Of a DNA stretch of 58,752 nt, positions 7,560-58,752 are shown one piece after another (position 1 is the stretch's first letter; each line of letters begins with the position of its first letter). Under the pieces are notes generated by a model. The model searched no databases and was not told the origin of the DNA. It saw only the letters and a list, made by a program, of their open reading frames with translations. The position numbers and the translations under genes were made by a program. Source of the DNA: a virus; IMG/VR virus record IMGVR_UViG_3300045988_036009; one strand, 5' to 3'.

Positions 7560-7588
7560 GATAATGACCCTCCTTAAATTATCTTTTC

Positions 7589-7617
7589 ATTATCAACCCT
7601 GTAATTTCTGCGAAAAA
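7589..7617 (-). promoter_or_regulatory. Conserved promoter/leader cassette, copy P6
   Basis: Minus strand reads TTTTTCGCAGAAATTACA-GGGTT-GATAAT-GAAAAGATAATTTAAGGAGGG-N9-ATG(7559). Confidence 0.6.
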
Positions 7618-7638
7618 GAAGGGAGCCATGTAGGCCCC
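7613..7638 (-). terminator. Probable rho-independent terminator after the lysin operon
   Basis: Minus strand reads GGGGCCT-ACAT-GGCTCCC followed by TTCTTTTT, which merges into P6. Lies 6 nt after the stop of 7645..8184. Confidence 0.55.
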
Positions 7639-7644
7639 GCTTCA

Positions 7645-8918: not shown

Positions 8919-8932
8919 ATTAAGTTCCTCCG

Positions 8933-9334: not shown

Positions 9335-9336
9335 AT

Positions 9337-9858
9337 TTAGTTTCCTCCAGTTTCTGCTGCTTTCTTAAAGTCGTTCGGATTTAAGTGAACGACGTCTTGC
9401 CACTTTAAAATTTCTACGATGCCGTTCTTGTGGTAATCCGAGAACAGTTTGTAGATATCCGTAGTATCTTTAGGGATTGTGAGTGGCTTATTCATAGTAA
9501 CCATAGCATAGTCACCTTCCCAACCCTCAGCTTCGTAATTAGGGATACGAAGTTTGATTTGAGATCCTGGGAAATATGACTCACCAATCTCACCTTCTTT
9601 AAGGTATTGAATAAGCGTAGCAAATTGGTTGTCATAAATAAATGGAGAACGCAAGTTAACATCTAGCAAAGTAGACATTAACGTGTGTTCGTCACGGTGT
9701 TGAAGATCTTGAATAAGATATTTACCAATTTCTTCGTCGGTTTGTTGCTTCATATCTTCTGTTAAGACATAAGGATATTCGTAGCGGAAATATGGATTGT
9801 TATCCACAACCGCTACTTTAGTCCCTTCTTCATCTTCGAAGCGTTCTAGTTTAAACAT
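9337..9858 (-). CDS. Hypothetical protein (tail-fibre-associated by position)
   Basis: 173-aa ORF between the collagen-like fibre gene and the lysis region. No motif recognised. Confidence 0.65.
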   Translation of the reverse strand: MFKLERFEDEEGTKVAVVDNNPYFRYEYPYVLTEDMKQQTDEEIGKYLIQDLQHRDEHTLMSTLLDVNLRSPFIYDNQFATLIQYLKEGEIGESYFPGSQIKLRIPNYEAEGWEGDYAMVTMNKPLTIPKDTTDIYKLFSDYHKNGIVEILKWQDVVHLNPNDFKKAAETGGN

Positions 9859-9870
9859 AAATTAACCTCG

Positions 9871-18350: not shown

Positions 18351-19123
18351 TTAGGAGTTAGAGTTATTGTAGCTGGAGCAGTGCCCTTAGTGGCTGTGAA
18401 ATATACCCGGTTAGTCCGGAGATCATTTCCTGGCTCAAGTTTAAAGAACTCTTTCCCCACAGTATTGTTGTTTTTGTTTGTGATCGTGGATCCTGACTTA
18501 GAATATACAATGTATCGAGTACTATCAATGATGATTGTCTCATTTTGCATGTCCTTAATTGTCATAGCAGTGGATCCAATAGAAATTTTCAAGTTACCCG
18601 TAACACCAGAGAACTGTATTGTTGGTCTGGAGAAATATAGATTTGGATTATCAATCACTTCACCCGAAGTAACAACTCGAGGTTGATTGTCCACATTATA
18701 TTTAAACGGTTGACATTTTAGTTTCACTTTGAATGAAATACATCCTTGATAGAAGTATTTGTTTTCATAAGTGATTTCGGTCATGATAACTTTGTAAATA
18801 TGACTTTGATCAAAATATGGAATGAAGTCAATCCAGTTACCAACCCCATTGTTAAATAGAAAATTGATTCTATTACGGGCTAGTGAAATATCTCGATCTG
18901 AGTCATTATGACTTCGTCCGTCATAGAAACAGCTTAGCTCGAATTCGGTTGGCTCATAACCTTCATCGTCAAAAGCCAACTCTCCTTCGTAGCCATTTGG
19001 TGACTCGAAAGTCACACGTCGTTTAGGTGTTTCTATATCTGGGCGATCTTGGATAAATACATGATAATCTTCAGACTTGTATCCGTTGATCATGAAATAT
19101 CCAGGTTTTAAAGGCATCACCAT
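18332..19123 (-). CDS. Distal tail protein (Dit)
   Basis: 263 aa. The N-terminus ...FMINGYKSEDYHVFIQDRPDIETPKRRVTFESPNGYEGEL and its position between TMP and Tal fit the siphovirus tail-component family. Confidence 0.7.
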   Translation of the reverse strand: MVMPLKPGYFMINGYKSEDYHVFIQDRPDIETPKRRVTFESPNGYEGELAFDDEGYEPTEFELSCFYDGRSHNDSDRDISLARNRINFLFNNGVGNWIDFIPYFDQSHIYKVIMTEITYENKYFYQGCISFKVKLKCQPFKYNVDNQPRVVTSGEVIDNPNLYFSRPTIQFSGVTGNLKISIGSTAMTIKDMQNETIIIDSTRYIVYSKSGSTITNKNNNTVGKEFFKLEPGNDLRTNRVYFTATKGTAPATITLTPNWRVLV

Positions 19124-25100: not shown

Positions 25101-27417
25101 TTTGTCCAACAATATTGGATAATCCAGATTTGACAGACGATAGAGAATTCTTTAGTCCTTCTCCAATATTGCCAAAGGCTTTACCCACAACATCTTTTAC
25201 TTTACCAAAGTTATTCTTAACTCCAGATAAAATATTAGACATACCAGTATCCAATCCATCAATAAATGATCGCATACTTGGCGAAATAGCCTTAAGACCG
25301 TTCTTAATAGAATTTCCTATTTTGGCAAATATACCGTTATCGGAGAATGTCTTAGGAAATGCTTTGGCGATAGATTTGAATCCATCGACAAGTTTAGGAA
25401 CCATACCTTGGAATAATCCACTAAATGCTGTCAATATTCCTTTGAACACACCAAACTTCTGGATAGAAGATCGCAATCCTTCTACGAATTTTCGAATACC
25501 ATCCGTAATCTTAACCAACATGTCAGTGAATTTAAGCAATCCACCACCACTGTTAGTTCCGAAATTAAACAATGAGAAGAATCGTGATACGATATCTGCA
25601 GCGATTTTGAATAATGTCCCTAGAATGCTCAACATATTACCAATCACTTTACCAATGTTGACAAAGCTTTGCATAATGTTATGGTTCTGGCGCATAGTGT
25701 TTAAGAATTTAGTAATTCCGTCGGCAGCTCTTTTGAATACGAGAATAACCCCGTCCATAGATCCGACTGTTGAATTAAATCCTAAAGATAGTTTATGAAC
25801 AATCGTCCATACAGTGTTGAACACAGCACCAAACATTCTACCAAGAGAAATAAGTGTCTCTTGAATAGCAGCATTCTTCTTCAAGTTCTCAGTGAAGTTT
25901 CTGAAACCTTCGGTAACACTCAATAATCTTTTAGCAGACTCTTCGTACGTACCAATGGACTCACGGAAGCCCTCACGGAAATTAGTCATGGACTTGAATA
26001 CAAATTCAAAACCATTCTTGATTGAGTCAAAGAACGCTGTTTGTCCACCCATGTCTTTCCATGTTTTCAACATGGCATTTCGGTAGTTACCTAGACTACG
26101 CTCCATGTCAAGAACCGTGTCATGATAAGTTCCTTGAGAATCGTCGAAGAATTTGTTAACAATTTTTCCGACGTCGGTCCAAAGTGCCTTAGCCTCTTCA
26201 AATCCACCAAATAAGTATTCCCAAGAAGTGGCCCATCCAGAACCAATTGCTTCTTGTACGGTGTCTACCAGTTGTCCAAAGGATTTGATTTGAGTTGCGG
26301 CATTTAACATCGCCTCATCTACTGAGAATTCTTTCAAAGTATTAATCAATACTTCGGATGTTAACCAACCGCTTTTCAAAGACTCACGGAATGATTTAGT
26401 CATATCCCGAGCATTACCCATCTTCTCAGCCATTTGAGTCAATCGGTCTTGGAATAACTTACCACCCATACCGGCATTTACTACAGAGTTCCAGTCCTGA
26501 AGACCTACTTTACCTGAAGCCAATGCTTGAGACAATTGGTACATTGCCATAGAGGCTTGTTCTGTGTTTGACCCAGATGCTGCGGCCAAGTTGGAAATAC
26601 CTTTAATCGCAGTGGCTGAATCTTCTAGACCCACACCGGCTGCAGTAAATGTACCGATGTTTTTGGTCATATCTTTGAATGAGTAAATGGTTTTGTCGGC
26701 ATACTCATTCAAGTCCTCTAACACTTTAGAGGTTTTACGCATACGCATACTTTGATCCGGAATTTCCCACTCAGTATTCGTCATGATTGTTTGTACAGAT
26801 CCGAGTTTCTCTTTGTACTCGTTTAAACCATCAACTGGTCCAGCAAAGAATTTAGAACCGAAGTTGATAGCTTTCTGTAGCATGTTACCCATGACAATAC
26901 CCATAGCGACATCCATTGCATTAAGAGATCCTTTAACGGAATCTGCTGCTCTAGAAAATGCACCAGTAAGTGGGTTCAGATTGATACCAGATGCTTTTGT
27001 ATTTAAGCTGTCAATAGATTTGACAGAATTGGGAAATCCCTGGTGATTATCCGCCTTTTGAAATATACCTTTCAACCGGGAGAGAATACTAGATGTCTTA
27101 GACGTTCTGCTAGCAACATCAGTATTCATCTGCTCGATTGATTTAGCAGCACCGGTCATGTTAATTCCTTCGGTACTACGAGTAAACATTCCTTTAAGAC
27201 GAGATAATAGGCCTTGGGATTTTGACGTTGATTTTGAAATTGCGTCAGGGATTGCGTTCATCTCCTTGGCAATGTTCTTTGATGCGTTACCGCCATTGAT
27301 CTTAGCGAAGGCTTGCTTCATCTTCTCAAGAGCGGAGATTGTGTCAGTCGCGTTTTTGGTAAAGCCCTTATTATCCAGAGTTACCTTGGCGACTTTCTCA
27401 TCAACATATCCGGCCAT
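19117..27417 (-). CDS. Tape measure protein (2766 aa)
   Basis: Largest ORF, located between the chaperones and Dit. Helical low-complexity sequence, about 12 tandem 59-aa hydrophobic repeats, Gly/Ala/Ile-rich repeats and a Met-rich segment. Confidence 0.9.
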   Translation of the reverse strand: MAGYVDEKVAKVTLDNKGFTKNATDTISALEKMKQAFAKINGGNASKNIAKEMNAIPDAISKSTSKSQGLLSRLKGMFTRSTEGINMTGAAKSIEQMNTDVASRTSKTSSILSRLKGIFQKADNHQGFPNSVKSIDSLNTKASGINLNPLTGAFSRAADSVKGSLNAMDVAMGIVMGNMLQKAINFGSKFFAGPVDGLNEYKEKLGSVQTIMTNTEWEIPDQSMRMRKTSKVLEDLNEYADKTIYSFKDMTKNIGTFTAAGVGLEDSATAIKGISNLAAASGSNTEQASMAMYQLSQALASGKVGLQDWNSVVNAGMGGKLFQDRLTQMAEKMGNARDMTKSFRESLKSGWLTSEVLINTLKEFSVDEAMLNAATQIKSFGQLVDTVQEAIGSGWATSWEYLFGGFEEAKALWTDVGKIVNKFFDDSQGTYHDTVLDMERSLGNYRNAMLKTWKDMGGQTAFFDSIKNGFEFVFKSMTNFREGFRESIGTYEESAKRLLSVTEGFRNFTENLKKNAAIQETLISLGRMFGAVFNTVWTIVHKLSLGFNSTVGSMDGVILVFKRAADGITKFLNTMRQNHNIMQSFVNIGKVIGNMLSILGTLFKIAADIVSRFFSLFNFGTNSGGGLLKFTDMLVKITDGIRKFVEGLRSSIQKFGVFKGILTAFSGLFQGMVPKLVDGFKSIAKAFPKTFSDNGIFAKIGNSIKNGLKAISPSMRSFIDGLDTGMSNILSGVKNNFGKVKDVVGKAFGNIGEGLKNSLSSVKSGLSNIVGQIGGTIKSVFSGIANMAKQGYDLLKDIFKSFHGADIIQALIGLFAFDKWLKFKSGDNSLVTKFLDRFEGMFDKFLDKGKESVPLVKKVLDDFKGALNDFSKGIKVGLLIGISVACLMLAVSLDKLSKIDMKDLSKAMIAMGAAMAGMMKIVKTLGAIDGIPKGAGFTLIGIAIAIRILAGALKKLEGMDMDSMVTAVAGIRFVMNGLVKSMKRLSEVEKTSKAGITKMIAFAFAMRIIVGALAKLKGMGVAEIGVAMVGVRALMRTMTDSMKELDKVSYNKGGATAMIGFAIALRIIVSSVSAIAKLDPEGAVIGMVGAGALMEELARCMKKMNGVVVGGRTMASMIGFAISLRILVMSIKAIAKLQPESALQGLLGTVALMEALVQCMKQLNGTVVGGRTLASMIGFAISLRILVMSVKAIAKLQPEAAIQGLLGTAALMEALVLCMKQLNGTVVGGRTLASMIGFAISVRILVLAVQKLAKLPIDTMIPAVASVGGLMEVMTHSMKRMGNVKFENKMIMSMIAFAGSVYILALSVEKLAKFKWDELLLAIGTISILLSEMLIVMNALQGIKTDSKSIFSMIAFAGSVFILGKTVEGLSTLSLDGVLLALGTITTIMAELIGVAHLLKSIKINYKSMFALMAFTLAIYSIGKTIQKLSTIPWKNLAAACAGVGAVIVALGFAAKQVSGMSGSIQQTLATAAIFEQFSRLLGSIGNALEKVAKVPWQSLTVATVAIGVVLAGFVYISKVMTKVDASAGDIAAIIALSNAVNTIGNALSKVANYPWQSILAATVAMGAAMGGLVIMSKSLEKVSVGDAGKLLILSVALMALAVPIALLASLNLIAVGISLGALAGHLILLIGAAKLAQGTARGMAILSKTLLSFGASSIMAASSIAIAGIGFLAFSMAIKNLAETAPAAFANIVQGLLVFVESLVQAGPRLMKAGIELIVQFVEGLAQGIPRIIAATVQMIIALLDGLAQNAHKLVDSGVQVIVEFSKGIIDNMGILVQTAVEMATKFVEEFGKALIGVKDRLIPALTQLLSVISEIILKVLQELVGPIIEGILHIMEPIIEVILQVIERIAQALAPILVPLIDAIKTLIQEVSNVVQAIADTVIAIVENLGSIIRSIADVIIAVVDTIRAAIEGFVTIVQTLGQTIQVIFLSIASIVNSVMQGIVGAINGFANVIRSVGEALKNVFVGIGQGIQAALQGVASVVQSIGGAIKAAFEGIGAAAQGIGQGIQSALQGVASVVQSIGGAIKSALEGVGKAFEGAGKFAEGFGKGIEHVMNGVAKIVDSVGNAIKGIIEAVGKAFKDVGKGIELMGKGMKPIADHGFQAAAAITAVSGAVALLGGASYTGNLNGFREDLDKLDTVMYKMSTRKGSGGAIKDIASALKTASSAAPSAASALEKFASSSEKIKSSASGMASNIKGVASALSGISQASMGASPGIVLLAAGLEKVANTLTQFIARITALAASMSSLGMIFTTTGSAVANLSTAFTSISTGTTAFGNAMNQAKTALAQFSASAAGSTTSFAVLGTAMTMAMTLVVNAVNNGMNQARAALQQGFAMMGMSAATSMTSVVMAVNMGMISVVNAIRTNIASVSTVISTGMAQAAAGMARGFAMMGVSASTSMALVRTTVTMGMLGIVQSIQNSMNQAAQAMTSSMARIAQAMSLSMSQINAQMNMSLNMMRVSMQMAFMTMQMTIMTAMMQMANQIRSSSAMMQATMFQLGNQMVSAMRMAMALLNVTILTGMMQAANGVRSAAGIAHAGGVYVGSMISQGVAAGIRAHLGSVIAATNEIVAQAERAARAKAKIKSPSRLFAANVGKYIPQGVAMGIAKEMPRTVKQMGKTFANGFSDVTSLAVDHANGMASAVADAVNTVGTLLDDSLADMDYRPTITPVVDTTNLDKLQNGNILSGLNVDPTNVPRPAYPGAPGSLHSNNTNVYDNSNKEYSITVKVDNGGKPVDGKQLAREIQQHIKDFDDQARRGKGEEVLW
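21331..21513 (-). repeat. 108-bp (36-aa) tandem duplication inside the tape measure gene
   Basis: GIGQGIQ(A/S)ALQGVASVVQSIGGAIK(A/S)A(F/L)EG occurs twice. The DNA copies start at 21331 and 21439. Confidence 0.8.
22500..24621 (-). repeat. About 12 tandem 177-bp (59-aa) repeats inside the tape measure gene (outer copies diverged; the left boundary is approximate)
   Basis: Central copies are nearly identical, e.g. GGRT(M/L)ASMIGFAISLRILVMS(I/V)KAIAKLQPE(S/A)A(L/I)QGLLGT(V/A)ALMEALV(Q/L)CMKQLNGTVV. Equivalent ATG codons lie at 23763, 23940 and 24117, a period of 177. Confidence 0.85.
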
Positions 27418-38909: not shown

Positions 38910-41522
38910 CTATGATAGATCCTGTACAGTAGACACACTGATACCTAGTGCATCAGCTACTTCTGCATAGGTGTGACCGTTCTTAAGCATGGTCTTAGCA
39001 CGACTAGCAGTAGATAGGCTAATAGACTTCTCTGTACGTGGTGTAGCTAGCTGCTTAACACGATCACTATCAGCGAATCGTAGTACATCAGTTAGCATCT
39101 TACTAGAGACAGCCCCAGATTGAATAGCTTTCCACTCATCATCGTCAATAGAGATGCGTGTAGACTTACCATCAGCACCAGTCTTAACACGGGCTGCTGC
39201 AATAGCCTGTTGTTTAAGCTTCTTGAGCTGGTCTTTGCTCATGTCAGGAGTACGTTTTTCAGCAATAGTCTTGTTAGCCATGAGCTGAGCTTGACGTTCT
39301 CTAGGAGAGTTGTACAAAGCGTCGTTAAGCTTCTTCTGTAGAGACTCAACTTGTGTCTTGTACTTGACTTTAGCATCCTTAGACATGGTCATGTTAGGCG
39401 TCTTGCTAATGATAGACTCACCTTTTGTACGCATCTTACCAAGAGCATTAATGTAATTACCATACATGTTCTCAATAGCTGTACCAGAACCTAGTTTCTT
39501 AGCATCATCTACCATATCAACAATAGGTGTAAATGAAATGGTTTTAGTTTTCTTGATCTTAGGAGCTAATCTAGGATTAGCAGCTAGTTCTTCAGCAGTT
39601 CTTTCCTTATACCAATGCTCGGTCTCACGATAGTCGGTCTTCGATCTAGAAATAAGAGTTGATGCTCCGCTGGATATCTTTCCTGTTACAACATCATAGT
39701 GTTCTTGATATTTCTTTTTAAGCTGGTCTATATTATTCTCTCTTTCAGAACGTTTATAATCCAAGCTATGTTTTTCAGCATCAATAACAACCATTGAATG
39801 TTTAACAGCTCTAGCAATTTCAGATTGAGATGCGCCTTTAAGAGTCATATCAGTAATAAGATTCGATACAACTCCCATTTGTTTTTGCGTATCAATCTTC
39901 GGTGGCTTAGGAGTATAATAACTTTTCGAATCGAAGTTCTTTAATTCTTTTAAAGAACGACTAGTTTTAATTCCATTATTGTTGTTAGGAATAACCATAA
40001 CTGAGTCACCATCGAAATCAGCACCAGATAATTTAGATGCTACAGATGAATCAATACCGATTGCATCCTTTGCACCCTTCATAAATTTAGCCGGGCCTTT
40101 ATCAAGTTTATTATTAACAGTTAATTCTGGTAACTCGAAAATACCACCATGAGGATAACGAACAAGTACAACCTTTTCTCCATTCTTAAAGTTAGGAGCA
40201 TATACTTCATTAGCTTTAATACCAGATAAAGGTAATAATACTTGTCCTTTCATTCTGTCAAACCCAACCATTTTAAGATGTTGTCGTTTAACAGTGAGGC
40301 CATCAACAAAATCCTGCATCATAACTTTCTTGACTACTGGATTTGTTAAGGCATTGATCTCTTCAAACTCTTTCTTTAATTTATCGTATGTCTTTTCGAT
40401 ACGACCTTTAACCAAAGCTGGTGGTTGTTTAGATAAGAATTGTGAAGATAATGTTTTCGACCAAGAATTCCAATCGCCTTCCTCATTAACTTTATTAATA
40501 GCTCCAGCTTGTTTCTTGATCGTTGCACCAAATGGATTATCCGGATCATCTTTTAAAGGTTTGAGAACTTTTTCTTTAGGAGTTCCTTGTTTCTTGTTGG
40601 TGTTGAAAATAACATCGACACCTTTAGGGAAGTCTTTTGGATCTCCATAAATAGCCATACCTTTTAAATAATGAGTTCCGTTTACACCGATACGAACCTG
40701 AGCATATCTGGATTTACCTAAGTCCAAGTCTTTTACTCCTGGACGTAATTCCATTACACCATCTTTATCCGTACCGCCTTGCTCGTCATATCGAATACCT
40801 ACACGTTTCCAATCAATATGTTGAATAGGTTTCAATCCCAGTGAGGATTTACCTTCAGCATCTGTATGAATATGAGGAGGTGTGATTTCATGCTTGTGTT
40901 CCCTAACAACAGCAGGGTCTGCTTCTTTAGTTAACACTTTCATTTCAACCCAGTGATCATCATTTGTAGCATTCTTAACATATACTGTATGCCTGTGATA
41001 TCCTTCGGATTCCAATTGTTGTACAGCACGTTTAAGAGTACTTTCATTCACACCAAGTTGTTGTGCAGAACCTAAACCAACGTCAAGATATGGATTCTTT
41101 TCAATAAGACCTTTAATATCAGTCTTAATTTGTTCCATGCGATTTACATTGTTACGTACTTTCGCATCTAAATTCATACGAACAGTTGATTCAGGAATAC
41201 CCGTTCTACGAGATATCTCAATAGATCCTAAACCTTGATCGGCGAGCTCTTGAATTCGACTAATATTGTATAATCGAATTTCATGCTTAGCAATATTATT
41301 CCGTTTACGGAATTCAGTAGTTGTAATACCGAGCTTCATAGCAATTTGCGTATCAGATAATCCTGATCGCCTGTATTTAACAACTCTGTCGGACCATGAA
41401 GTAGCCCGCTGAAATGAATTCTCGCCAGATCCCCAAGCATATCGTCCACTATGTGGAATACTACCTTGGTGCGGGGTTCCTCTATGTTCGAGCATATCAC
41501 TATATGCTTCTTCCAAGTTCAT
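38910..41522 (-). CDS. Candidate single-subunit two-barrel RNA polymerase (YonO-like) with N- and C-terminal HTH modules
   Basis: 870 aa. aa 499-512 SGADFDGDSVMVIPN (nt 40005..40019 encode DFDGD) resemble the beta-prime loop NADFDGDQMAVH. aa about 455-475 KVVLVRYPHGGIFELPELTV resemble beta-prime LLNRAPTLHRLGIQAFEP. HTH-like segments: LSDTQIAMKLGITTTEFRKR, GSIEISRRTGIPESTVRMNL, LGVNESTLKRAVQQLESEG and C-terminal HTYAEVADALGISVSTVQDLS. Confidence 0.55.
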   Translation of the reverse strand: MNLEEAYSDMLEHRGTPHQGSIPHSGRYAWGSGENSFQRATSWSDRVVKYRRSGLSDTQIAMKLGITTTEFRKRNNIAKHEIRLYNISRIQELADQGLGSIEISRRTGIPESTVRMNLDAKVRNNVNRMEQIKTDIKGLIEKNPYLDVGLGSAQQLGVNESTLKRAVQQLESEGYHRHTVYVKNATNDDHWVEMKVLTKEADPAVVREHKHEITPPHIHTDAEGKSSLGLKPIQHIDWKRVGIRYDEQGGTDKDGVMELRPGVKDLDLGKSRYAQVRIGVNGTHYLKGMAIYGDPKDFPKGVDVIFNTNKKQGTPKEKVLKPLKDDPDNPFGATIKKQAGAINKVNEEGDWNSWSKTLSSQFLSKQPPALVKGRIEKTYDKLKKEFEEINALTNPVVKKVMMQDFVDGLTVKRQHLKMVGFDRMKGQVLLPLSGIKANEVYAPNFKNGEKVVLVRYPHGGIFELPELTVNNKLDKGPAKFMKGAKDAIGIDSSVASKLSGADFDGDSVMVIPNNNNGIKTSRSLKELKNFDSKSYYTPKPPKIDTQKQMGVVSNLITDMTLKGASQSEIARAVKHSMVVIDAEKHSLDYKRSERENNIDQLKKKYQEHYDVVTGKISSGASTLISRSKTDYRETEHWYKERTAEELAANPRLAPKIKKTKTISFTPIVDMVDDAKKLGSGTAIENMYGNYINALGKMRTKGESIISKTPNMTMSKDAKVKYKTQVESLQKKLNDALYNSPRERQAQLMANKTIAEKRTPDMSKDQLKKLKQQAIAAARVKTGADGKSTRISIDDDEWKAIQSGAVSSKMLTDVLRFADSDRVKQLATPRTEKSISLSTASRAKTMLKNGHTYAEVADALGISVSTVQDLS

Positions 41523-41536: not shown

Positions 41537-42112
41537 CTATTTAGGTTTACTTTCAAGAATTCCCGAGAACTCTTTAATTGTATGATATACGTCATACACG
41601 TCTTCTGCTTCAGGAATATAAGTCTTGATGTCATTGCCTTGATAAATACGGAGTTCAAAATCCGTCTTCTCAGGCTTGACGCCATACTCCAAACAGAAAT
41701 AAGCAGCATAAACTAATAGCTGCTCCATTTTAGGTTTGGTAACACCTGTCTTCAAATCATGAATCCTAAGAAATCCACGAGGATTATCTTTCTTAGGAGG
41801 ATCATAACGAATAGCATCGGCAGTACCAAATGCATATGGACTGTAAAATAAGAGTACTTCACTATCCATACGATAACCAATGGCATCATTTACAAAATTA
41901 GCAACAGCCGGGTGAGTGTTACCTGGCAATAATTTAATTTTGTGGTGAATTGCTTCACTAGCAAATTCATGCAACTCAGTGCCTCGTTGTTTAGCTTGTT
42001 CGTTTTCGAATCTGGTAATTATCTTATCGGGTGTATAATTTAACCAGTGACACTGACTAGCGCTGAGAAATGAGTGACGACCCTCGTACTCTGGATGTCT
42101 GTTCCATTTCAT
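41537..42112 (-). CDS. PD-(D/E)XK (RecB/Cas4-like, DUF2800-type) nuclease
   Basis: Start set at the ATG at 42112 (MKWNRHPEYEG...) after AAGGAGG. Motifs ...GTELHEFASEAI..., FGTADAIRYD and LRIHDLKTG (D...D.K). Confidence 0.65.
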   Translation of the reverse strand: MKWNRHPEYEGRHSFLSASQCHWLNYTPDKIITRFENEQAKQRGTELHEFASEAIHHKIKLLPGNTHPAVANFVNDAIGYRMDSEVLLFYSPYAFGTADAIRYDPPKKDNPRGFLRIHDLKTGVTKPKMEQLLVYAAYFCLEYGVKPEKTDFELRIYQGNDIKTYIPEAEDVYDVYHTIKEFSGILESKPK

Positions 42113-42383
42113 TGAGTACTTCCTCCTTGTTCTCTGGATAAATGGTTCGGGCCCATCCACCATTTGTATTATAGTGATTTAAATAATACTCTTGGTTTGG
42201 TCGATATGGGGCCTTAGCCGATTTCTTAACTTCCAAATGATAGGAATATGGACCAACATCAACAGATAAATCAGGAATACCTTGAATATAGTTAGGATCG
42301 TTCTTCTTAACAATAGCTTCAGGGATTCTTGTCTTAATATCTTTAATCAATTGCTTTTGGAAATCTCGTTCCAATTTGGACAT
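42057..42383 (-). CDS. VRR-NUC domain nuclease
   Basis: Start set at the ATG at 42383 (MSKLERDFQKQLIKDIK...) after GGTGGAG. ...IQGIPDLSVDVGPYSYHLEVKKS...RPNQEYYL fits the VRR-NUC pattern (E.FQ, G.PDL, E.K, Q). Confidence 0.7.
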   Translation of the reverse strand: MSKLERDFQKQLIKDIKTRIPEAIVKKNDPNYIQGIPDLSVDVGPYSYHLEVKKSAKAPYRPNQEYYLNHYNTNGGWARTIYPENKEEVLNEMEQTSRVRGSSLISQR

Positions 42384-43519
42384 ATGTTCTCCACCCAATT
42401 CCTTTCATTAAATTTCTTTTTGCTTCGAATGGAGCGTTCGATAGCATCATCAATAGAAGCCGGGGATTTCAAGTAAACGTAGTACAAATCTTTAAAGGAG
42501 GTATTCACTCGATTAATTCGTCCTTCCGATTGCTCCATTATTCGGTAAGAATAGTTAAGCGAGTAGAATAAAATCGTATCAGTAGTAATGCAGTTCCATC
42601 CCTCGGCTCCGGCCGTATATTGCACAAGATATACCCAGGTTTCAGCGTCTGGGATAGCTTCATGCTTTTGACCATTCCATTGATAATATGCCCTATCTAA
42701 TTCTTGACAAATCTCTTTGAGAATATCAAGCTCGTAGGTGTAGTTATAAAAGACAATAACTCTATCTCGAGTCATGATCTCTTGTTTCGCATGAATTCTA
42801 CGGCGCTCACTTGTATTTACAATACGACGAAGCACTTGCGTGAATTCTGATGCGTTCATAATAGGTTCTTCAGTATATGGATTAAACCTACTCTTAACAA
42901 CAGACTGATATAGTTCTTTGTCAAAGTCGGTATTAATATACTTACGATGCAAATTGGTTGTCCTAAAATCTTGCATAGGAACAGCCAAATAACGTCGGAA
43001 CCTTTCTAGTTTATCGGTCTTGTGATATCGTCTGATCTGAGGAAACTTAGAATATGGATTGTACTCCACATGTTGATCCACAAAATCAGTTTTGTTTCGA
43101 TAGAAATTATTGGCTATGAAAATACACATCCAATCCATCCAAACATCACCAGGTGTGGCGGTTAACATAATCCAATTGTTCTTACGAGCAATATGTATAA
43201 ATGCTAAACCCCATTTACCATAACCGATTGCGCGTTGTTCGTCAAATATAAAGAATGCGTCTTTCACATCAGTATACTTTTCGATATTGTTCCAGGAATC
43301 AACAACGCCATCAATTCCTAAGGCTTCAAAATCTCTATGCCATTCTCGGTCATTCCTTTTCTTGGCGACCGTGATGATATAGAGAGGTTTATCTATATGG
43401 TTCTCCATATAATAAAATAGGCCGGTCAAGGATTTCCCTGAGCCGACCTTTCCGCACAATACAGAACCGTTATGAAGTCTATCAACCGCCTTTCGTTGAT
43501 AGTCATATAACTCAATCAT
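42347..43519 (-). CDS. SF2 (SNF2/DEAD-like) helicase
   Basis: 390 aa. YDYQRKAVDRL, motif I CGKVGSGKSLTG, motif II FIFDEQR, motif III MLTATPG, C-terminal ...QYTAGAEGWN...EQSEGRINR. Confidence 0.8.
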   Translation of the reverse strand: MIELYDYQRKAVDRLHNGSVLCGKVGSGKSLTGLFYYMENHIDKPLYIITVAKKRNDREWHRDFEALGIDGVVDSWNNIEKYTDVKDAFFIFDEQRAIGYGKWGLAFIHIARKNNWIMLTATPGDVWMDWMCIFIANNFYRNKTDFVDQHVEYNPYSKFPQIRRYHKTDKLERFRRYLAVPMQDFRTTNLHRKYINTDFDKELYQSVVKSRFNPYTEEPIMNASEFTQVLRRIVNTSERRRIHAKQEIMTRDRVIVFYNYTYELDILKEICQELDRAYYQWNGQKHEAIPDAETWVYLVQYTAGAEGWNCITTDTILFYSLNYSYRIMEQSEGRINRVNTSFKDLYYVYLKSPASIDDAIERSIRSKKKFNERNWVENICPNWNEISKSN

Positions 43520-44064
43520 TAATAACCATACTTACGTTCAAGTGGATTTGGAGCTACGTGAATATACGCATTCTTCAAATCAAGACGAGCGTAAGTCCCT
43601 TCATCACTTGGTTCGCGACGACGGATAGTCATATCAACGCATGACATTTCCATTTCATCAATCAATTGGAATTGATCTTCTGTCAAGAACTGACGATCTT
43701 GCGAACATACTGGATCATCAACATCACATACTTCGCCATCATTATCATAAATGAGTGCAATTGATGGAATTGAGAATTTAGTATACACTTTCACCTTGAA
43801 GTAGTAAAATGGTTGATACATGTCAGGGTTTTCAGCCATCTTTTTAGCCATCTCGTCATCTCGTGGTTTAGGCTCCCACAATTTAACGTTAACCCCATAC
43901 TGTTCGGCGAGGATTTGAGCGTCTTCTTCAGACACGACAACGTTAAAATAACGGTCTCCTGTACGATTGTATCGTTCTTCACGTCCTGCGAAGTTTGGTT
44001 TAAAGGCAAACTCAACATCTTCGAGGATAAGTTGATGGTTAGAAGCTTGTAATAATTTTGTCAT
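43519..44064 (-). CDS. Possible ssDNA-binding protein (DUF2815 / T7 gp2.5-like) by module context
   Basis: Start set at the ATG at 44064 (MTKLLQASNHQLILEDVEFAFKPNF...) after AAAGGGA. Sits in the DUF2800/VRR-NUC/SNF2/polymerase module where such SSBs usually occur. The motif match itself is weak. Confidence 0.4.
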   Translation of the reverse strand: MTKLLQASNHQLILEDVEFAFKPNFAGREERYNRTGDRYFNVVVSEEDAQILAEQYGVNVKLWEPKPRDDEMAKKMAENPDMYQPFYYFKVKVYTKFSIPSIALIYDNDGEVCDVDDPVCSQDRQFLTEDQFQLIDEMEMSCVDMTIRRREPSDEGTYARLDLKNAYIHVAPNPLERKYGY

Positions 44065-44155
44065 GATAATGTCCCTTTCTATTTTGACGTGATTGACAAA
44101 TTGCAACAAAAAATAAAAGAAGCGCGAAAATCGTTGAATTTTCTTGTTCCTTTCT

Positions 44156-44214: not shown

Positions 44215-47200
44215 TTAGGCCGCCAATTCTTGAGGTTGTTCTTCGTTTAGTCCAAGTGGTTCGATATAATCTTTAGGTATTTCGTCGACAATCGCGTTGA
44301 TGTCTCCAACCTTCATGATTTTCTTCAAACCAGCGATAGCAATTTTATCATAGTAGTCGAAATCGATATCTTCATAATCAAATTCCGACGTTTGTTTGAA
44401 TTTGAATCCTTTTGTTCCAGTGACAGATTTGAAATTCTCATTATCTTCTGTCCATAGACACTCAGCTCCTGTCTTAGAAGCATAAATAGATCCAACCTTA
44501 CCTACGAATTCGTCTCCAAGATAAATATGACCTTTGGATTGCTTAGTAATGAAGAAATCTTGATCAGTCAATTCTTCTTTTGTCCAAACCCGTTTGAGTA
44601 AATATGGATTAGCGAACTCTGCTCCCGTCGGAGACCAACTGTCATCTTCCAATTGAGCAATATAAACAGCATTATTAATTAACGCCATACGTTTATATGT
44701 ATGCTCATGTTCGAATTTATAGTTGTATTCTGGACGCTTACCGAAATCTTCAATAAGTTTAACAACTTTCGCATCGCCATTTGGAACTTTAACTGAGTCA
44801 GTCTTAATATGACAAACTTGGTAACCTTGTTCTTCCAAATAGAATTTGAGGTCGACCATAAATAAAGCTCCACGTTTAGCAACAATATTGTCGATGTTGT
44901 CTTTATGCTTGAATTTATTATCAAATGATGCTGATGTCATTCCATAAACAGAGTTGATAGCAATCTTCAAAGCAGACACCAATGGTTTGCGGTATTCTGG
45001 GTTATCCACGAATGGCGCCAATTTACCTTCAAACATAGTTTTGACTTCGTCAATCTTATTATGTTTGAGTAATACGCGAACTTTAAGCAAGTCAGCATAT
45101 CGTTGAGTATATGGTCCGAAATAATTCATATTGATTAAACTATTCGGATGCATTGACTCAACGTCTTCAAGAACAATGTCTTTATACACACCCGGCTCCG
45201 CATATACAAATCCACCTTCACCAGTTTCAATCCCACGATATGTTGATTTACCGAATTTGTATTCGTATCCTGGGAATGTCTCGCTCAAGTCTACGTAATT
45301 GAATTTGTCTTGTGGACGAGGATCTTGTCCAAAGATAAATAAAGCTGTAAGCTGATTGTTGGTTGCGTTCATGGATCCTTCGGAAATAGTCGCCAGGATT
45401 TCACGAGCAACATAGTCAGCATATGTAGCATCAAATACTTTCTCAGTAGCCATTACGTCGTTGACACAGTATTCAACAACAGTGTCTACCAATTCGTCAG
45501 GTACTGGTTGATCCCAAGGGATTTCCATTTCGACGTGGTTAATTCCCAAATCGACTTCCCAACGCTTAAGCGACTGTTTCTTCTGTGCGTACTCATAAAT
45601 ATCAGCATAGCTCAATTCATAAGCTGCAGCATACATACCAGTCTTCGCATTCTTCTCGTTGATAATTCTTTGGGACTGTCGGAATAACTCCATGTTTGTC
45701 CCTCCGAGCAAACGAGCGTAGAGAATATGGTTATCGTATCGACGGTTGTTGAAACCGACTAATGGAAACGAACACAAATATTCAATTTGGTCTGCTGATG
45801 GATTTACCCAACGAACGAATTCGTCTTCACCATACTTCTTCCAGACAACGACAAATAGATTTGGATAGACCTCAATATCGAAGAATACGATTTCTTCTTT
45901 GGCAACAATCTTAGTTCCTGTTGTCAATTCGGTCTCAGTCTTTCCATCGTCATCGCGCATCGAAGACCAAGGGATCTTCATAAATACGTCCAAGCAATAA
46001 TCTTTGTTGTTCGTTGATTGTAACGCTCGAAGAAATACCGAATGCTTAAGATCGGACAAATCGTATTTCAATCCCATGTCATATGCTTTATGAATTTCAT
46101 GAGAAATCCAATCGATTGTTGGTTTAGTATTCGCATGACTCGGTTTCTCTCCTGGAATAAGTCCCAGTTGTTTCTTAACAAATTTACGGAGAGTCTTCTC
46201 GGTATAGGTAATATCTTTTACGTTTTCATACATCGTTGTCTCCTTCTTCTCTTTCATCGGCAGTCCCGACGAAATATGAGATACTTCAAGATTGTTCGAT
46301 GCATTATCAATCCGTCGCAAAGACGCCTTTCCCTTATAAACTTTAATTTCGACATTGTCTTCAACGACGTTGTCTAATAAATTCACATCACCATCATATA
46401 AATAATGCAGGTGAATACCTTTGCCGGATTTAGATACTTCAGCATATGTCGGGGGATACTTCGACGCAGCCTCTTTATTTAATTCCAGACTTTTCTCTCC
46501 GTTCTCATCCTTGATATCAAAGTCGAGAATAATATGTTGTAGTGGGACTTTAACCCAGTGTAATTTACGAGTATCAATTTCTTTTAGTGTTGTAATAACA
46601 TCATCCCATTTCTGAGATGGGTTTCCATTCTCCAAAGATGGTTGGGCAGGATAATCGGCAGCCAATTTATCGAACACCTCATTGTGATAACATAAATCAA
46701 GCCAATCCTTAACTTCGTCTTCAGGGATATCCATACCGACTACACCTTCAGGAAATGCTACAGACCATCTAAATCCTTTGAAATAATTACGAACACGAAC
46801 GCCATCGACTCGTTCCACGTTAACCATCGTATCGAAATATCGTAGGGCTTCGCGTTTGATCGTGGCTTTATATCCGTCTGTCTTCCATCCCATATCTTCC
46901 AAATAGTTTTTATACAATTCAGAAAGTTGTTTTAAACTAATACCATCTTTCATTTGCATTGCTTCACTTCGAATGAAATCAAAGATATGGTCAGTCTGCT
47001 CAGCCATACTAACATCGAAATAATCATCAAAGAAATCGGGTCCTAGTTCTTCGAATCTCTTAATGGCCATGTCAGCAATATAAGGCAACTCGTATTTGAT
47101 TTGGTTCATCAAAGAATCATATTCCCTATGAGTAACTTTTTCACCGCTTGGATTTACTACAACAGCACGTCGAGTAATACCAGAGTCGACGTTTCGGACT

Positions 47201-48042
47201 TTATATCGTTGGTTTGATGCAGTAATAAGTAAACCGCTAAATGTAACATCATACGGTTCTTTGTACTTTTGGTTGACAGAAATGGTTTCGTGACTTGTCA
47301 GTTTCAATAACGGAGTATCGTTATAAATATGACTGATGTCAGTATCCTCATCGATCAACAATGGAACTTCTTTAATTTGTCCGGTCGCGAATGGATCGCC
47401 ACTCGTTAACAATTTTAAATCGACAGTTCCACAATATTTCTCAAACAACCATCTGAATATCTTAAGTACAGTTCCTTTACCACTACCTTTCGATCCGTAC
47501 AAATACATGAACTTCTCGATCTTGTACATCTTGTTGGTAAATAAAGCTCCCATGAACCAAAGAATTTTGTCAAGTTCTGGTGGAGCATATAGAGTACCGA
47601 TCAATTTCTTAAAAGCTTCAGGTTCTCCCTTGGTTGGTGAATATGACAACTGAGTTGTAGCATAATCCTGTCGCTTCATTTGGTGATCCGCGAATAGTAC
47701 TTTCTGGTTGAATGGAATATCGTTTTGTTCGGTGGCTTTACAATAGTCTAGAAATAATCGGAACTTGCCACCAGAAGCTTTCCGAATTTCTTTCACTTCA
47801 ATCCGAACCCCTGGGCCCTCTTCTTGAAGCTCTTTCGCTTTATTCCACAACTGACTATCAATATCATAGAATAAATTTCGTTGTAATGTGTCCCATCTAT
47901 GTCCATTCCAATATGCATAGAACTTACCACCCTTTACAACTAAATCCTTGGCATCCCCAAAGATAAAGTCGGGCGCCACCTCATAATCACATGATCTGTT
48001 ATTAGAATGGAACTTTTTGACGGAAACGTCCAAAAAATCCAT
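44215..48042 (-). CDS. Fusion protein: SF3 (D5/VirE-like) helicase + AEP-type primase + family B DNA polymerase with 3'-5' exonuclease
   Basis: 1275 aa, AGGAGG RBS.
- Helicase: Walker A LYGSKGSGKGT (aa 181-191), Walker B PLLIDED (227-233), motif C ITASN.
- AEP primase: ILDFDIKD (505-512) and SKSGKGIHLHYLY (537-549).
- Exonuclease: Exo I FFDIEVYPN (720-728), Exo II GFNNRRYDNHIL, Exo III YCVNDVMATEKVF.
- Polymerase: motif A EDVESMHPNS, motif B KIAINSVYGM, motif C HIKTDSV. Confidence 0.85.
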   Translation of the reverse strand: MDFLDVSVKKFHSNNRSCDYEVAPDFIFGDAKDLVVKGGKFYAYWNGHRWDTLQRNLFYDIDSQLWNKAKELQEEGPGVRIEVKEIRKASGGKFRLFLDYCKATEQNDIPFNQKVLFADHQMKRQDYATTQLSYSPTKGEPEAFKKLIGTLYAPPELDKILWFMGALFTNKMYKIEKFMYLYGSKGSGKGTVLKIFRWLFEKYCGTVDLKLLTSGDPFATGQIKEVPLLIDEDTDISHIYNDTPLLKLTSHETISVNQKYKEPYDVTFSGLLITASNQRYKVRNVDSGITRRAVVVNPSGEKVTHREYDSLMNQIKYELPYIADMAIKRFEELGPDFFDDYFDVSMAEQTDHIFDFIRSEAMQMKDGISLKQLSELYKNYLEDMGWKTDGYKATIKREALRYFDTMVNVERVDGVRVRNYFKGFRWSVAFPEGVVGMDIPEDEVKDWLDLCYHNEVFDKLAADYPAQPSLENGNPSQKWDDVITTLKEIDTRKLHWVKVPLQHIILDFDIKDENGEKSLELNKEAASKYPPTYAEVSKSGKGIHLHYLYDGDVNLLDNVVEDNVEIKVYKGKASLRRIDNASNNLEVSHISSGLPMKEKKETTMYENVKDITYTEKTLRKFVKKQLGLIPGEKPSHANTKPTIDWISHEIHKAYDMGLKYDLSDLKHSVFLRALQSTNNKDYCLDVFMKIPWSSMRDDDGKTETELTTGTKIVAKEEIVFFDIEVYPNLFVVVWKKYGEDEFVRWVNPSADQIEYLCSFPLVGFNNRRYDNHILYARLLGGTNMELFRQSQRIINEKNAKTGMYAAAYELSYADIYEYAQKKQSLKRWEVDLGINHVEMEIPWDQPVPDELVDTVVEYCVNDVMATEKVFDATYADYVAREILATISEGSMNATNNQLTALFIFGQDPRPQDKFNYVDLSETFPGYEYKFGKSTYRGIETGEGGFVYAEPGVYKDIVLEDVESMHPNSLINMNYFGPYTQRYADLLKVRVLLKHNKIDEVKTMFEGKLAPFVDNPEYRKPLVSALKIAINSVYGMTSASFDNKFKHKDNIDNIVAKRGALFMVDLKFYLEEQGYQVCHIKTDSVKVPNGDAKVVKLIEDFGKRPEYNYKFEHEHTYKRMALINNAVYIAQLEDDSWSPTGAEFANPYLLKRVWTKEELTDQDFFITKQSKGHIYLGDEFVGKVGSIYASKTGAECLWTEDNENFKSVTGTKGFKFKQTSEFDYEDIDFDYYDKIAIAGLKKIMKVGDINAIVDEIPKDYIEPLGLNEEQPQELAA

Positions 48043-48292
48043 TTATACCTCCTGTGCACGTTTTTCACACTTTTTGGCCCATTTTGCCCATTGTTATATA
48101 TAATAGTTAAAATTTTAACTGCCTTCTACAACAATATACATTCTGAACGATTTTTCGTGTTTTTGTGCGCCACTTTTTGCCAATTTCACGATTTTACCCC
48201 GAAATAGGCCCAATATCAGGCTAAAAAGGCTATTTTTCGTGTTTTTCGAACACAAAGTGACACAAGAATTTTTGTGTCAAAATGTGCTGAAA
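48043..48292. promoter_or_regulatory. 250-bp intergenic control region upstream of the replication genes (repeats, palindrome, hairpin); candidate promoter/operator or origin
   Basis: - Perfect 16-bp palindrome AGTTAAAATTTTAACT at 48105..48120, next to TATATATAAT.
- 15-bp direct repeat atttttcgtgttttt at 48150..48164 and 48232..48246.
- Repeated CAC(N)TTTTTG(G/C)CC motifs at about 48066 and 48171.
- Hairpin gacacaa/ttgtgtc at 48259..48278. Confidence 0.45.
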
Positions 48293-48959: not shown

Positions 48960-49134
48960 CTTGTTCCTTCAATTCTTTCCGTCCAGGAAATTGAAAATCG
49001 GGGAATTTAATCAACTCCCCGGTCTCCGAATTAAATGCCCACCGTCGATCATGGCTTGTCCACCATTTGCTAACGGCTTCGCCAGTTATTCCACGGCTCT
49101 CAAGTTCCTTACAAACAGGATTTTTATTAGTCAT
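48949..49134 (-). CDS. Hypothetical small protein
   Basis: Start set at the ATG at 49134 (MTNKNPVCKELESRG...), overlapping the upstream stop. Confidence 0.5.
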   Translation of the reverse strand: MTNKNPVCKELESRGITGEAVSKWWTSHDRRWAFNSETGELIKFPDFQFPGRKELKEQDGQ

Positions 49135-50026
49135 CGTCCAATCCTTCTTTCTCAAAGAAAATGGTTTCACCTTCCTTATCCACAATTTTATCGAAAGGAC
49201 AATCAGTCTTCTCGAAATATGTAGTGAAAGATCCATCACCATTAGCCACAATACGAACAACCTCACCTTTCTCAATACGAGATAACATCATATCAAGCAT
49301 AACGCGATCGTTCTCTTTTTTAGCTTCTTCTTTTTGCATCTCACGAACGTAATACGAGATTGCGTCGATACCGTCGGGGAATTCATACACAGCCTTATGA
49401 CCGTAATCCACCTTAACAGATTTAGGCAATGTACTAGGATGCAGTGCGTTTGAGATTTCGAATAATTTATCCTGGTCAACTTCGAGATTTAACTCCAATT
49501 TCTCAGGGCCTTTTAAATGAATCCCAGAGAACTGAGGTTGGTATTTAATACCCTTATCCGCAAGGCCTTCTTCAATTGCTTTTTGGAGAGAACCGGTTTT
49601 ACCATCACGACGACCGGGAATAAAAACCATAGCTTTTGATTTGGTTTCATCGATAGATTTCACAACCGAAGTATTAGCCTTCTTAAGAATATCCTCAATG
49701 TTACCATCGAGCTCTTTTAGGCGTAATTCCTTCCATTCAGCCGCCTTTTTACCTTTCAACCAGCATGCAGCCATCGCAGCATAGTTGGACAGGTCTTCTA
49801 AGGTGTCTACAAGGCTCTCAGAGGCGATCTGAGCGTCTTTATTCGGATCATTGAGTGAAACTAAGCGCTCGAATTTGTCGCTCATACGGACGATGCCAGC
49901 CACCAATCCGAACGTGTCTAAACTCTTCTCAAATGAGTTCCCATAGTCGTGATTTTTACGTTTGAAGGTCTCAAGTTGGTGATTATATTGGTCTTCCATT
50001 GATTTAGGTGTTACTTTATCAGTCAT
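49127..50026 (-). CDS. Hypothetical protein with DUF1599-like N-terminal domain
   Basis: Start set at the ATG at 50026 (MTDKVTPKSMEDQ...) after GGAGGA. ...KRKNHDYGNSFEKSLDTFGLVAGIVRMSDKFERLVSL resembles the K..DYG...G..G...R..DK..RL signature as I remember it. Confidence 0.5.
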   Translation of the reverse strand: MTDKVTPKSMEDQYNHQLETFKRKNHDYGNSFEKSLDTFGLVAGIVRMSDKFERLVSLNDPNKDAQIASESLVDTLEDLSNYAAMAACWLKGKKAAEWKELRLKELDGNIEDILKKANTSVVKSIDETKSKAMVFIPGRRDGKTGSLQKAIEEGLADKGIKYQPQFSGIHLKGPEKLELNLEVDQDKLFEISNALHPSTLPKSVKVDYGHKAVYEFPDGIDAISYYVREMQKEEAKKENDRVMLDMMLSRIEKGEVVRIVANGDGSFTTYFEKTDCPFDKIVDKEGETIFFEKEGLDDD

Positions 50027-50582
50027 TGTCGTATTTTCCTCCATTAACATTTACTTTAATATCTTTTATTCCTGAACGTTCAATTAGTATCGACTTAATA
50101 TCATCTTCCGCAAACACATATATTGCATCAATACCACTCCAAACGAGACCCGCATCTTTGTGGACTGTATAAATAAGAATTTTATGACCACGCAGATCAT
50201 GATCCCACTTACGCTCCATCTTAAATACACGGTCGAAACGGAATTCTGTATGATCGATCTTTCTATGAGAAACAATTGTTACTCTACTAATATCGTTATT
50301 ATACGGGAAGAAGCGGATCTTTTCAAAATCAGTCCCAGCAGTACGCTCAGAAATAAACATCTTAGCTTTCTCAGCATCAAAATAATTCATATCATTAACC
50401 TGAATATTATCCACTTCATTCATAGTGATGATTTTAGTATCAAGACGATCCAAAGTCTCATGATAACGAAGTAAGATATAGTTCTCATGATACTCAATAT
50501 CGACCACCAAATCAATCCAATCCTTACGACGTGGAGCAATATAATCAATGGTTACGGTCTTATATTGTTGTTTGCCTCTCAT
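50019..50582 (-). CDS. Hypothetical protein
   Basis: Start set at the ATG at 50582 (MRGKQQYKTV...) after AAAGGGGAG, 1 nt after the upstream stop. Confidence 0.6.
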   Translation of the reverse strand: MRGKQQYKTVTIDYIAPRRKDWIDLVVDIEYHENYILLRYHETLDRLDTKIITMNEVDNIQVNDMNYFDAEKAKMFISERTAGTDFEKIRFFPYNNDISRVTIVSHRKIDHTEFRFDRVFKMERKWDHDLRGHKILIYTVHKDAGLVWSGIDAIYVFAEDDIKSILIERSGIKDIKVNVNGGKYDND

Positions 50583-58391: not shown

Positions 58392-58752
58392 TATTTAGTC
58401 TCCTTGCGTTTGATAACAACAGCAGCAGATGCCAAGAATACACCAGTAGTAATAAGAGCAAGCTCTAGGCTAGATCCAGTATTTGGCAAAGTATGAGTTT
58501 CAACTTGTTTGGTTGCTTCAATTACTTTAGCCGGGATATTACGCACAACAGGTTTCTTTTCTTCGTATTTACGAATAACAACTTGTTTAGGTGCAGGTGG
58601 TGTTTGAGGTTTAGGAGTTTCCTTAGGCTTATCTGCTGGTTTCTTAGGATCCTCTTTAGGCTTGTCTTCTGGCTTCTTAGGATCCTCTTTAGGTTTTTCC
58701 TCTGGTTTCTTAGGATCCTCTTTAGGTTTGTCCTCTGGTTTCTTAGGATCCT
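58391..58752 (-). CDS. LPXTG adhesin, C-terminal part (continues from 1..1073 across the window junction)
   Basis: Own translation ...KPEDKPKEDPKKPEEKPKEDPKKPEDKPKEDPKKPADKPKETPKPQTPPAPKQVVIRKYEEKKPVVRNIPAKVIEATKQVETHTLPNTGSSLELALITTGVFLASAAVVIKRKETK*. It has LPNTG (58475..58489), a hydrophobic helix and a basic tail, which together make a sortase sorting signal. Stop at 58391..58393. Confidence 0.85.
   Translation of the reverse strand, partial: DPKKPEDKPKEDPKKPEEKPKEDPKKPEDKPKEDPKKPADKPKETPKPQTPPAPKQVVIRKYEEKKPVVRNIPAKVIEATKQVETHTLPNTGSSLELALITTGVFLASAAVVIKRKETK
58641..58752 (-). repeat. 33-bp coding tandem repeat, right part (3.4 units; continues at nt 1)
   Basis: Units start at 58641, 58674, 58707 and 58740 (ttcttaggatcctctttagg(c/t)tt(g/t)t(c/t)(t/c)tctgg(c/t)). 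Confidence 0.85.

Follow-up and report, generated by a model that had tools for sequence, protein, structure and literature searches.

The fusion of a helicase, a primase and a DNA polymerase of family B (PolB) in one phage polypeptide was described by Kazlauskas et al. (2016; PMC4889955). The group was subsequently named HelPrimPolB and assigned to the EpsilonN-like clade as a divergent member, with a divergent motif C and KxY and with prevalence in metagenomes (Kazlauskas et al., 2020; PMC7544198), and one of its members, GP55 of Lactococcus phage 1706, has since been purified and assayed (Zhang, Lu, Zhu, Huang, NAR 2025; PMC12205980). The gene analysed here lies at 44215..48042 on the minus strand of a 58,752-nucleotide (nt) viral sequence (IMG/VR record IMGVR_UViG_3300045988_036009), the whole of which is referred to below as the window. 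Its product of 1275 amino acids (aa) is, with a probability of roughly 0.9, an ordinary member of the phage HelPrimPolB family and the orthologue of GP55, that is, the phage replicase. A preliminary description of the same DNA had presented the fusion as unusual, and the novelty that this implied is not upheld, the architecture having been published in 2016, 2020 and 2025.

The biochemistry of GP55 provides the reference for this protein (PMC12205980). Its polymerase activity is lost in D949A, its 3'-5' exonuclease in D712A/E714A, and its UTP/dTTP-dependent helicase in K189A, and strand displacement was also shown. The RNA primase activity, lost in D509A, prefers GTP initiation at 5'-CCAAC-3' and requires a new alpha-helix domain (aHD), in which mutation of Y655 or F667 abolishes priming and which the authors suggest to be a template- or initiation-site-reading element. 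GP55 is mainly a dimer in solution, carries out complete de novo replication of ssM13 DNA, and has more than 1000 homologues, mostly in phages of human-associated bacteria (PMC12205980). The proposal of the preliminary description that one protein could unwind, prime and extend has therefore found experimental confirmation in this 45%-identical protein (PMC12205980).

The gene is complete, as judged from the open reading frame (ORF) listing, PHROG 4210 and collinearity with GP55, and represents the 'four-in-one' replicase type of GP55. Its 1275 codons run on the minus strand, which is the strand of all large ORFs in the window, from an ATG at 48042 to a stop at 44215 without a frameshift or internal stop, and a strong ribosome-binding site, AGGAGG (48048..48053, minus strand), can be read 5 nt 5' of the ATG. 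The GC content of the window, ~38-39%, is unremarkable. BLASTP against GP55 (YP_001828703) gives 45% identity over residues 1-1251 (1129 bits, E = 0), and PHROG 4210 matches residues 1-1256 with 1449 bits. When eight GP55 positions (K189, D507, D509, Y655, F667, D712, E714 and D949), all but D507 proven essential by mutation, were mapped onto the protein, seven proved identical, the exception being F667. Conservation was examined in an alignment of 12 members, namely the 1275-aa protein, 1706 GP55, five actinophage and five metagenomic proteins, with identities to the 1275-aa protein down to ~41%; the catalytic residues of the helicase, primase and PolB parts are invariant in all 12. The motifs quoted in the preliminary description are all present, and the order that it gave, from helicase through primase to exonuclease and polymerase, stands. 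By analogy with GP55, the helicase, primase, polymerase and exonuclease activities, the nucleotide preference and the oligomeric state are inferred to be the same.

The helicase module extends to residue ~430 and is centred on a D5-type superfamily 3 (SF3) core at residues ~106-340 (47023..47727, minus strand). Pfam DUF5906 matches residues 181-292 (E = 1.5e-11) and NCBIfam TIGR01613, the P4-family primase C-terminal domain, residues 120-386 (E = 3e-17). In Foldseek searches an AlphaFold2 model of residues 1-700, with a mean predicted local distance difference test score (pLDDT) of 73.6, matched MPXV (monkeypox virus) E5, vaccinia D5, the NrS-1 C-terminal region and the SaPI5 primase-helicase at E = 3e-8 to 5e-6. 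The D5/VirE-like P-loop helicase recognised earlier from its motifs is thus borne out by profiles as well as by fold matches to D5-type helicases. These motifs are the Walker A GSKGSGKGT (K189/T191), the Walker B D233, the sensor-1 TASN with N277 and the arginine finger R291/R292, and across the alignment G183, G186, G188, K189 and T191, D233, N277, and R291 and R292 are invariant, K189 aligning with K189 of GP55. Walker A reads GKGT in the members from Firmicute phages, GP55 included, and GKST in those from actinophages; one idea, drawn from this sequence difference, is that the GKGT form may underlie the UTP/dTTP dependence reported for GP55.

The core is flanked by a further segment on either side. 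A beta-rich N-terminal domain (residues 1-105; 47728..48042, minus strand), which falls within the GP55 'helicase domain' (GP55 residues 1-439), was found by no profile search. Its model has a pLDDT of 78-92, with strands within residues 4-45 and a helix at 54-75, and D2, F3, P24, D33, G38, W45, W50 and D62 are invariant in the alignment. On the other side, residues ~341-430 (46753..47022, minus strand) form the end of the module, where AlphaFold2 places helices within 344-399 followed by strands at 403-412 and 415-424, and where the coverage of TIGR01613 and phrog_1829 extends to ~386-405. This helical and beta-hairpin end is probably winged-helix-like.

The archaeo-eukaryotic primase (AEP) catalytic domain, which is PriS-like, spans residues ~461-590 (46273..46662, minus strand) and was at first the weakest of the domain assignments, the full-length protein matching two PHROG primase families at E ~1e-3. 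When the AEP region was searched alone in 10 diverse family members, all 10 matched both phrog_695 ('DNA polymerase/primase', best E = 1e-5) and phrog_3022 ('DNA primase', best E = 7e-5), always in the N-terminal part of these families, while Pfam Prim-Pol was matched by seven and AEP-TOTE by five of the 10, all below threshold. In hhalign, the NrS-1-like primase domain of phage Sasha was matched at E = 3.5e-5, with DxD and SGxGxH aligned. Javan458 and NatCom primase domains yielded no alignment with the AEP region, so that the Sasha domain was the only one to align, and the N-terminal domains of ordinary phage primase-helicases, tried as a Prim-Pol reference, were without curated Pfam matches. 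Motifs I (ILDFDIKD, with D507/D509), II (SKSGKGIHLH, with H544/H546) and III (VEIK, with E565) lie in the AlphaFold2 model on consecutive strands (503-508, 543-549 and 564-569), as in AEP cores. D507 and D509, identical with D507/D509 of GP55, are invariant in the alignment together with the series S537-K-S-G540-x-G542-x-H544-L-H546 and with E565 and K567. The PHROG families, the hhalign result and the motif strands together sustain the AEP-like domain that the preliminary description had named.

The primase accessory aHD probably follows at residues ~613-690 (45973..46206, minus strand), as indicated by four predicted helices and by residue mapping. The region aligns throughout with GP55 and the family, and its helices in the AlphaFold2 model (615-625, 639-655, 663-674 and 680-688) agree with the 'two pairs of parallel helices' described for GP55 (PMC12205980). 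Y660, which corresponds to Y655 of GP55, is conserved, but Arg672 stands at the position of F667.

The remainder of the protein is a complete PolB, with a 3'-5' exonuclease subdomain at residues ~715-900 (45343..45900, minus strand), identified from invariant columns and Foldseek matches to archaeal PolBs, and a polymerase subdomain at residues ~901-1260 (44263..45342, minus strand), identified from the NCBIfam Pol II match (E = 4e-6), an alignment with PDB 3k57 and Foldseek. A model of residues 691-1275 (pLDDT 80.2) matched the 9N, KOD and Tgo polymerases at E ~1e-17 to 1e-15 and Pol alpha at ~1e-13. The exonuclease motifs are Exo I (D722/E724), Exo II (N765..Y769-D770) and Exo III (Y858..D862); the polymerase motifs are A (D960 in DVESMHPNS), B (K1026..N1030..Y1033-G1034) and C (KTDS, T1081-D1082-S1083). 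D722/E724 correspond to D712/E714 of GP55 and D960 to D949. In the exonuclease part D722, E724, N765, N766, Y769, D770, Y858, N861 and D862 are invariant, and in the polymerase part D960, S963, H965, P966, K1026, N1030, Y1033, G1034, K1080, T1081, D1082 and S1083. Both these residues and the Foldseek match at E = 1e-17 agree with the earlier reading of Exo I-III and motifs A-C. A full-length PDB sequence search gave only a marginal match to Pol II motifs B-C (E = 0.11), and Pfam called DUF5906 alone on the full protein, as the divergence of the AEP and PolB domains keeps both below its thresholds.

Motif C lacks the usual first Asp (K1080) in all 12 aligned members, in agreement with the published divergence (PMC7544198). 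Inactivation of the polymerase was considered on this account and rejected, as GP55 with KTDS is efficient and primer-independent PolBs also lack this Asp. Motif A, DVESMHPN, resembles the Pol epsilon motif and contains, at H965 (45148-45150, minus strand), a His invariant in all 12 members where PolBs normally have the steric-gate Tyr. H965 would accordingly seem to occupy the steric-gate position, and no discussion of a steric-gate His in HelPrimPolB was found in the text of the cited literature.

The intergenic region of 250 bp upstream of the gene (48043..48292, minus strand) had been called repeat-rich and a possible origin in the preliminary description. The first part of this holds to the extent that the gap has the size given and contains a pair of 15-mers, a 9-nt repeat in 2.2 copies and a hairpin, and no further repeats were found. 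The exact 15-mer AAAAACACGAAAAAT occurs at 48150-48164 and at 48232-48246 on the minus strand, 82 bp apart. The second part finds no specific support. A phage replication origin recognised by the winged-helix-like part of the helicase module would be in keeping with the way in which D5/P4-type helicases bind origins, namely by means of a C-terminal winged helix (PMC4889955), with an AT-rich region (35% GC) containing hairpins, and with a 15-mer pair that is unique in the window and exceeds chance, being reached by none of 2000 mononucleotide and two of 2000 Markov shuffles. However, the closest relative (replicase 80% identical) lacks the 15-mers, and what is conserved there is only ~80 bp beside the start codon, as expected of a promoter and ribosome-binding site. 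Moreover, the hairpin at 48258-48279 comes immediately after the preceding gene's stop codon and looks like a terminator, several other sites in the window also carry exact repeats of about this length, and GC skew falls steadily over the whole window with no inflection at 48043-48292. An origin at this place is therefore improbable, and the region, with its conserved promoter-proximal block, showed no enrichment over shuffles in a promoter scan. The GP55 paper does not address origins (PMC12205980).

Several points weigh against the assignment of the protein as a GP55-like replicase. The Pfam scan gives no above-threshold AEP call, a PDB profile search with the AEP region returned nothing relevant, and the fold search of residues 1-700 was dominated by D5-type helicase matches, so that it speaks to the helicase rather than to the AEP domain. 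Residues 204-269 of the helicase core are poorly modelled, with low confidence in AlphaFold2. SF3 helicases such as those among the fold matches are normally hexamers and GP55 is a dimer by size-exclusion chromatography with multi-angle light scattering (SEC-MALS), so that the working oligomer may be either. The scan for replication genes was confined to 20 flanking ORFs, outside the structural half of the window. An identity of 45% to GP55 leaves room for functional differences, the activities being assigned by analogy. Finally, the position of GP55 F667 is occupied by Arg672 in the 1275-aa protein and in nine of the nine close relatives examined.

This last point could be taken to mean that the AEP/aHD module of the Arg672 subclade has been weakened or retargeted, with priming in vivo achieved by other means, for instance from transcripts of a YonO/RdRP (RNA-dependent RNA polymerase)-like polymerase, and with the protein serving mainly as a helicase-polymerase. 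A residue essential for GP55 priming is indeed replaced across the subclade, and a phage RNA polymerase gene lies five genes downstream. The Phe is kept at this position in 19 other proteins (GP55, five from actinophages and 13 members of a clade at ~50% identity). Nevertheless, D507, D509, H544, H546 and E565 of the AEP domain and Y660 of the aHD are strictly conserved in the subclade, which argues for selection on primase activity. In most members of the subclade, moreover, a Phe two positions before the Arg (VFLRA) might make up for the change. A loss or redirection of priming is on this evidence very doubtful, and a GP55-like replicase with a working primase remains the favoured interpretation. 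If the aHD does read the template or initiation site, a further possibility, although not the expected outcome, is that the Arg672 subclade of oral phages constitutes a natural specificity variant that primes at another recognition sequence or with another initiating nucleotide. As far as the sequence goes, the F-to-R change in the aHD is the only residue-level novelty of this protein.

The family to which the protein belongs is large. Among phage records 432 match, at least 252 of them over at least 80% of the protein and mostly annotated 'DNA primase/polymerase', and the hosts of these phages include Arthrobacter, Gordonia, Streptomyces, Lactococcus, Rhodococcus and Bifidobacterium. The same fusion, which the preliminary description had proposed to look for in related phages, is thus carried in full length by at least 252 deposited phage genomes. 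Among deposited genomes, that of Caudovirus D_HF5_2C, obtained from human saliva, comes closest, with a protein that is 80.5% identical and annotated 'DNA polymerase/primase'. A large protein database contains 510 homologues at E <= 1e-10, the closest of them 91% identical. With the helicase-primase half, 247 clusters (50% identity) were found at E <= 1e-30, and ~128 of the 150 best of these 247 are 1200-1520 aa long. Three short matches to this half were considered as stand-alone helicase-primase proteins without PolB and rejected, two lying at or near contig ends and one being followed by a frameshifted PolB remnant.

Full-length homologues in many independent genomes line up collinearly with the ORF, so that the fusion is no assembly artefact, and its uninterrupted reading frame, as first described, is confirmed. 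An artefactual joining of separate helicase-primase and polymerase genes through a sequencing or assembly error, to which a few short database relatives (573-1020 aa) and one contig with a helicase-primase ORF followed by a broken PolB might lend some colour, appears effectively refuted already, since hundreds of independent genomes share the uninterrupted architecture, GP55 was expressed and purified as a single polypeptide (PMC12205980), and the short relatives examined sit at contig ends or carry frameshifts. In the contig concerned (L012, positions 6001-10000, Logan SRR12177861) a 767-aa helicase-primase ORF precedes a separate ORF whose start coincides exactly with PolB motif A (MASMHP...), and the exonuclease region that separates the two is out of frame; the locus is a frameshifted or degraded copy and no natural split. 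In Bifidobacterium phage BitterVaud1 (MT006236.1, 38402-42909) the homologue match extends over 4508 nt in two pieces with 1231 aligned residues. This region, annotated as three hypothetical proteins, contains ~800 nt extra, possibly an intein, intron or homing-endonuclease insertion.

The neighbourhood of the gene is also that of a 1706-like phage. Directly adjacent lies a phage single-stranded DNA (ssDNA)-binding protein (43519..44109, minus strand), the counterpart of GP66, recognised by Pfam Phage_ssDNA_bind (E = 5e-20), phrog_4787 and 1706 gp66 (E = 2e-10) and likely to be the partner of the replicase. A superfamily 2 (SF2) helicase near the replicase is 44% identical to 1706 gp67. At 38910-41522 on the minus strand, a YonO/RdRP-like single-subunit RNA polymerase of 870 aa is flanked by helix-turn-helix (HTH) domains; its match to phrog_4291 has E = 5e-299, its identity to 1706 gp75 is 41%, and the GADFDGD catalytic loop is retained. 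Such an RNA polymerase is a signature gene of the 1706-like/actinophage supercluster (bioRxiv 10.1101/842583). The whole replication module, comprising the ssDNA-binding protein, the SF2 helicase, a VRR-NUC-like endonuclease, a Cas4-like exonuclease and the RdRP-like RNA polymerase, is syntenic with that of phage 1706. These neighbours place the phage in the 1706-like/actinophage supercluster (bioRxiv 10.1101/842583). Among the 20 flanking ORFs scanned, none was recognised as a further primase, replicative helicase or polymerase. To go only by the human-saliva origin of the closest relative, the phage probably infects an oral Firmicute and not Lactococcus.

Some further features of the window deserve mention. 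The ORFs of the Cas4-like exonuclease (41537-42163) and the VRR-NUC-like endonuclease (42057-42398), both on the minus strand, overlap by 107 nt. Since PHROG matches the exonuclease from residue 18 onwards, the true start codon probably lies further downstream, and most of the overlap would stem from ORF calling. A 307-aa protein (49127-50050, minus strand) with DUF1599, the 'nucleotide modification associated domain 1' (E = 6e-7), is encoded ~1 kb upstream of the replicase and hints at DNA modification. A 33-nt tandem unit, TTAGGCTTGTCCTCTGGTTTCTTAGGATCCTCT, which reads KPEDKPKEDPK-like in one minus-strand frame, occupies 58623-58752 and 1-~100 and runs off both ends of the window. Its presence at both ends indicates that the contig is circularly closed and was cut inside a coding repeat. 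Another tandem repeat, of 177 nt in 2.4 copies (78% matches), lies at 23695-24121 within an ORF of 2766 aa (19117-27417, minus strand), probably a tape-measure or tail protein.

Compared with known systems, the protein resembles GP55 in its domain order (SF3 helicase, PriS-like AEP, probable aHD, then PolB exonuclease and polymerase), in having the Walker A GKGT and the motif C KTDS, and in its flanking genes for an ssDNA-binding protein, an SF2 helicase, nucleases and an RdRP-like RNA polymerase. It differs in being 42 residues shorter, without a ~50-residue insertion near the GP55 C-terminus, and in having Arg672 instead of Phe667 in the aHD; furthermore, GP55 has been assayed, whereas the 1275-aa protein is known from sequence. 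Vaccinia D5 and MPXV E5, SaPI5 and primase-helicases of the phrog_1829 type have a homologous D5-type SF3 core and a homologous AEP domain. In these ordinary primase-helicases, however, the AEP precedes the SF3 helicase and no polymerase is present, while here the order is reversed and a PolB is added at the C-terminus, so that the protein departs from the canonical D5/P4-type architecture. The reversal follows from the swapped match positions of phrog_1829, of which positions 449-739 (helicase) match residues 123-405 and positions 47-123 (AEP) match residues ~475-545, and the order is indeed unusual against the normal primase-then-helicase arrangement, as had been pointed out before.

NrSPol of phage NrS-1 is likewise a replicase in one polypeptide. 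Its AEP catalytic domain is of the same subtype, as seen with hhalign through the Sasha primase, a homology also stated in the GP55 paper (PMC12205980), and the NrS-1 C-terminal region (6k9c) is among the matches to the helicase fold (E = 3e-7). In NrSPol, however, a single AEP active site both primes and polymerises and is accompanied by a helix-bundle domain (HBD), whereas the 1275-aa protein has a separate PolB and an unrelated aHD in place of the HBD. Pfam NrS1-1_pol-like_HBD, readily found in the Sasha primase, has no match in the 1275-aa protein at E <= 1, and with this and its separate PolB the protein falls outside the NrS-1-type PrimPol class. The other known triple fusion, Pas55 of Actinoplanes phage phiAsp2, combines an SF3 helicase, a DnaG primase and PolA, and in N4 dns the AEP is C-terminal to the helicase (PMC4889955). 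Compared here by description only, both are analogous and not homologous solutions: Pas55 has a DnaG-type primase and a family-A polymerase, and N4 dns has a superfamily 6 (SF6)-type helicase and no polymerase.

The present analysis has established the architecture, the helicase and PolB folds, the AEP homology, the conservation of catalytic residues, and the orthology and synteny with phage 1706, and a mechanism can be proposed by analogy with GP55. The N-terminal D5-type SF3 helicase, through its Walker A K189, would unwind the duplex and drive strand displacement, fuelled probably by UTP/dTTP rather than ATP. On the exposed single strand, the central PriS-like AEP domain and the four-helix aHD would make short RNA primers, which the C-terminal PolB would extend with dNTPs and proofread by its 3'-5' exonuclease. 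The primase and polymerase centres would be separate and could cooperate in trans within an oligomer, and the adjacent ssDNA-binding protein is the sole other dedicated replication protein recognised among the scanned ORFs.

To summarize, the fusion of these enzymes, the unusual order of the domains and the capacity of one protein to unwind, prime and extend have already been published and carry little weight as a discovery. Annotation of the gene as a four-in-one replicase of the GP55 type can be made with confidence, and its phage can be placed in the supercluster. A family-wide His at the putative PolB steric-gate position is now recorded, and R672 in the place of GP55 F667 offers a concrete residue difference to guide comparative enzymology in the HelPrimPolB family, a large one that is widely distributed among human-associated and soil phages.

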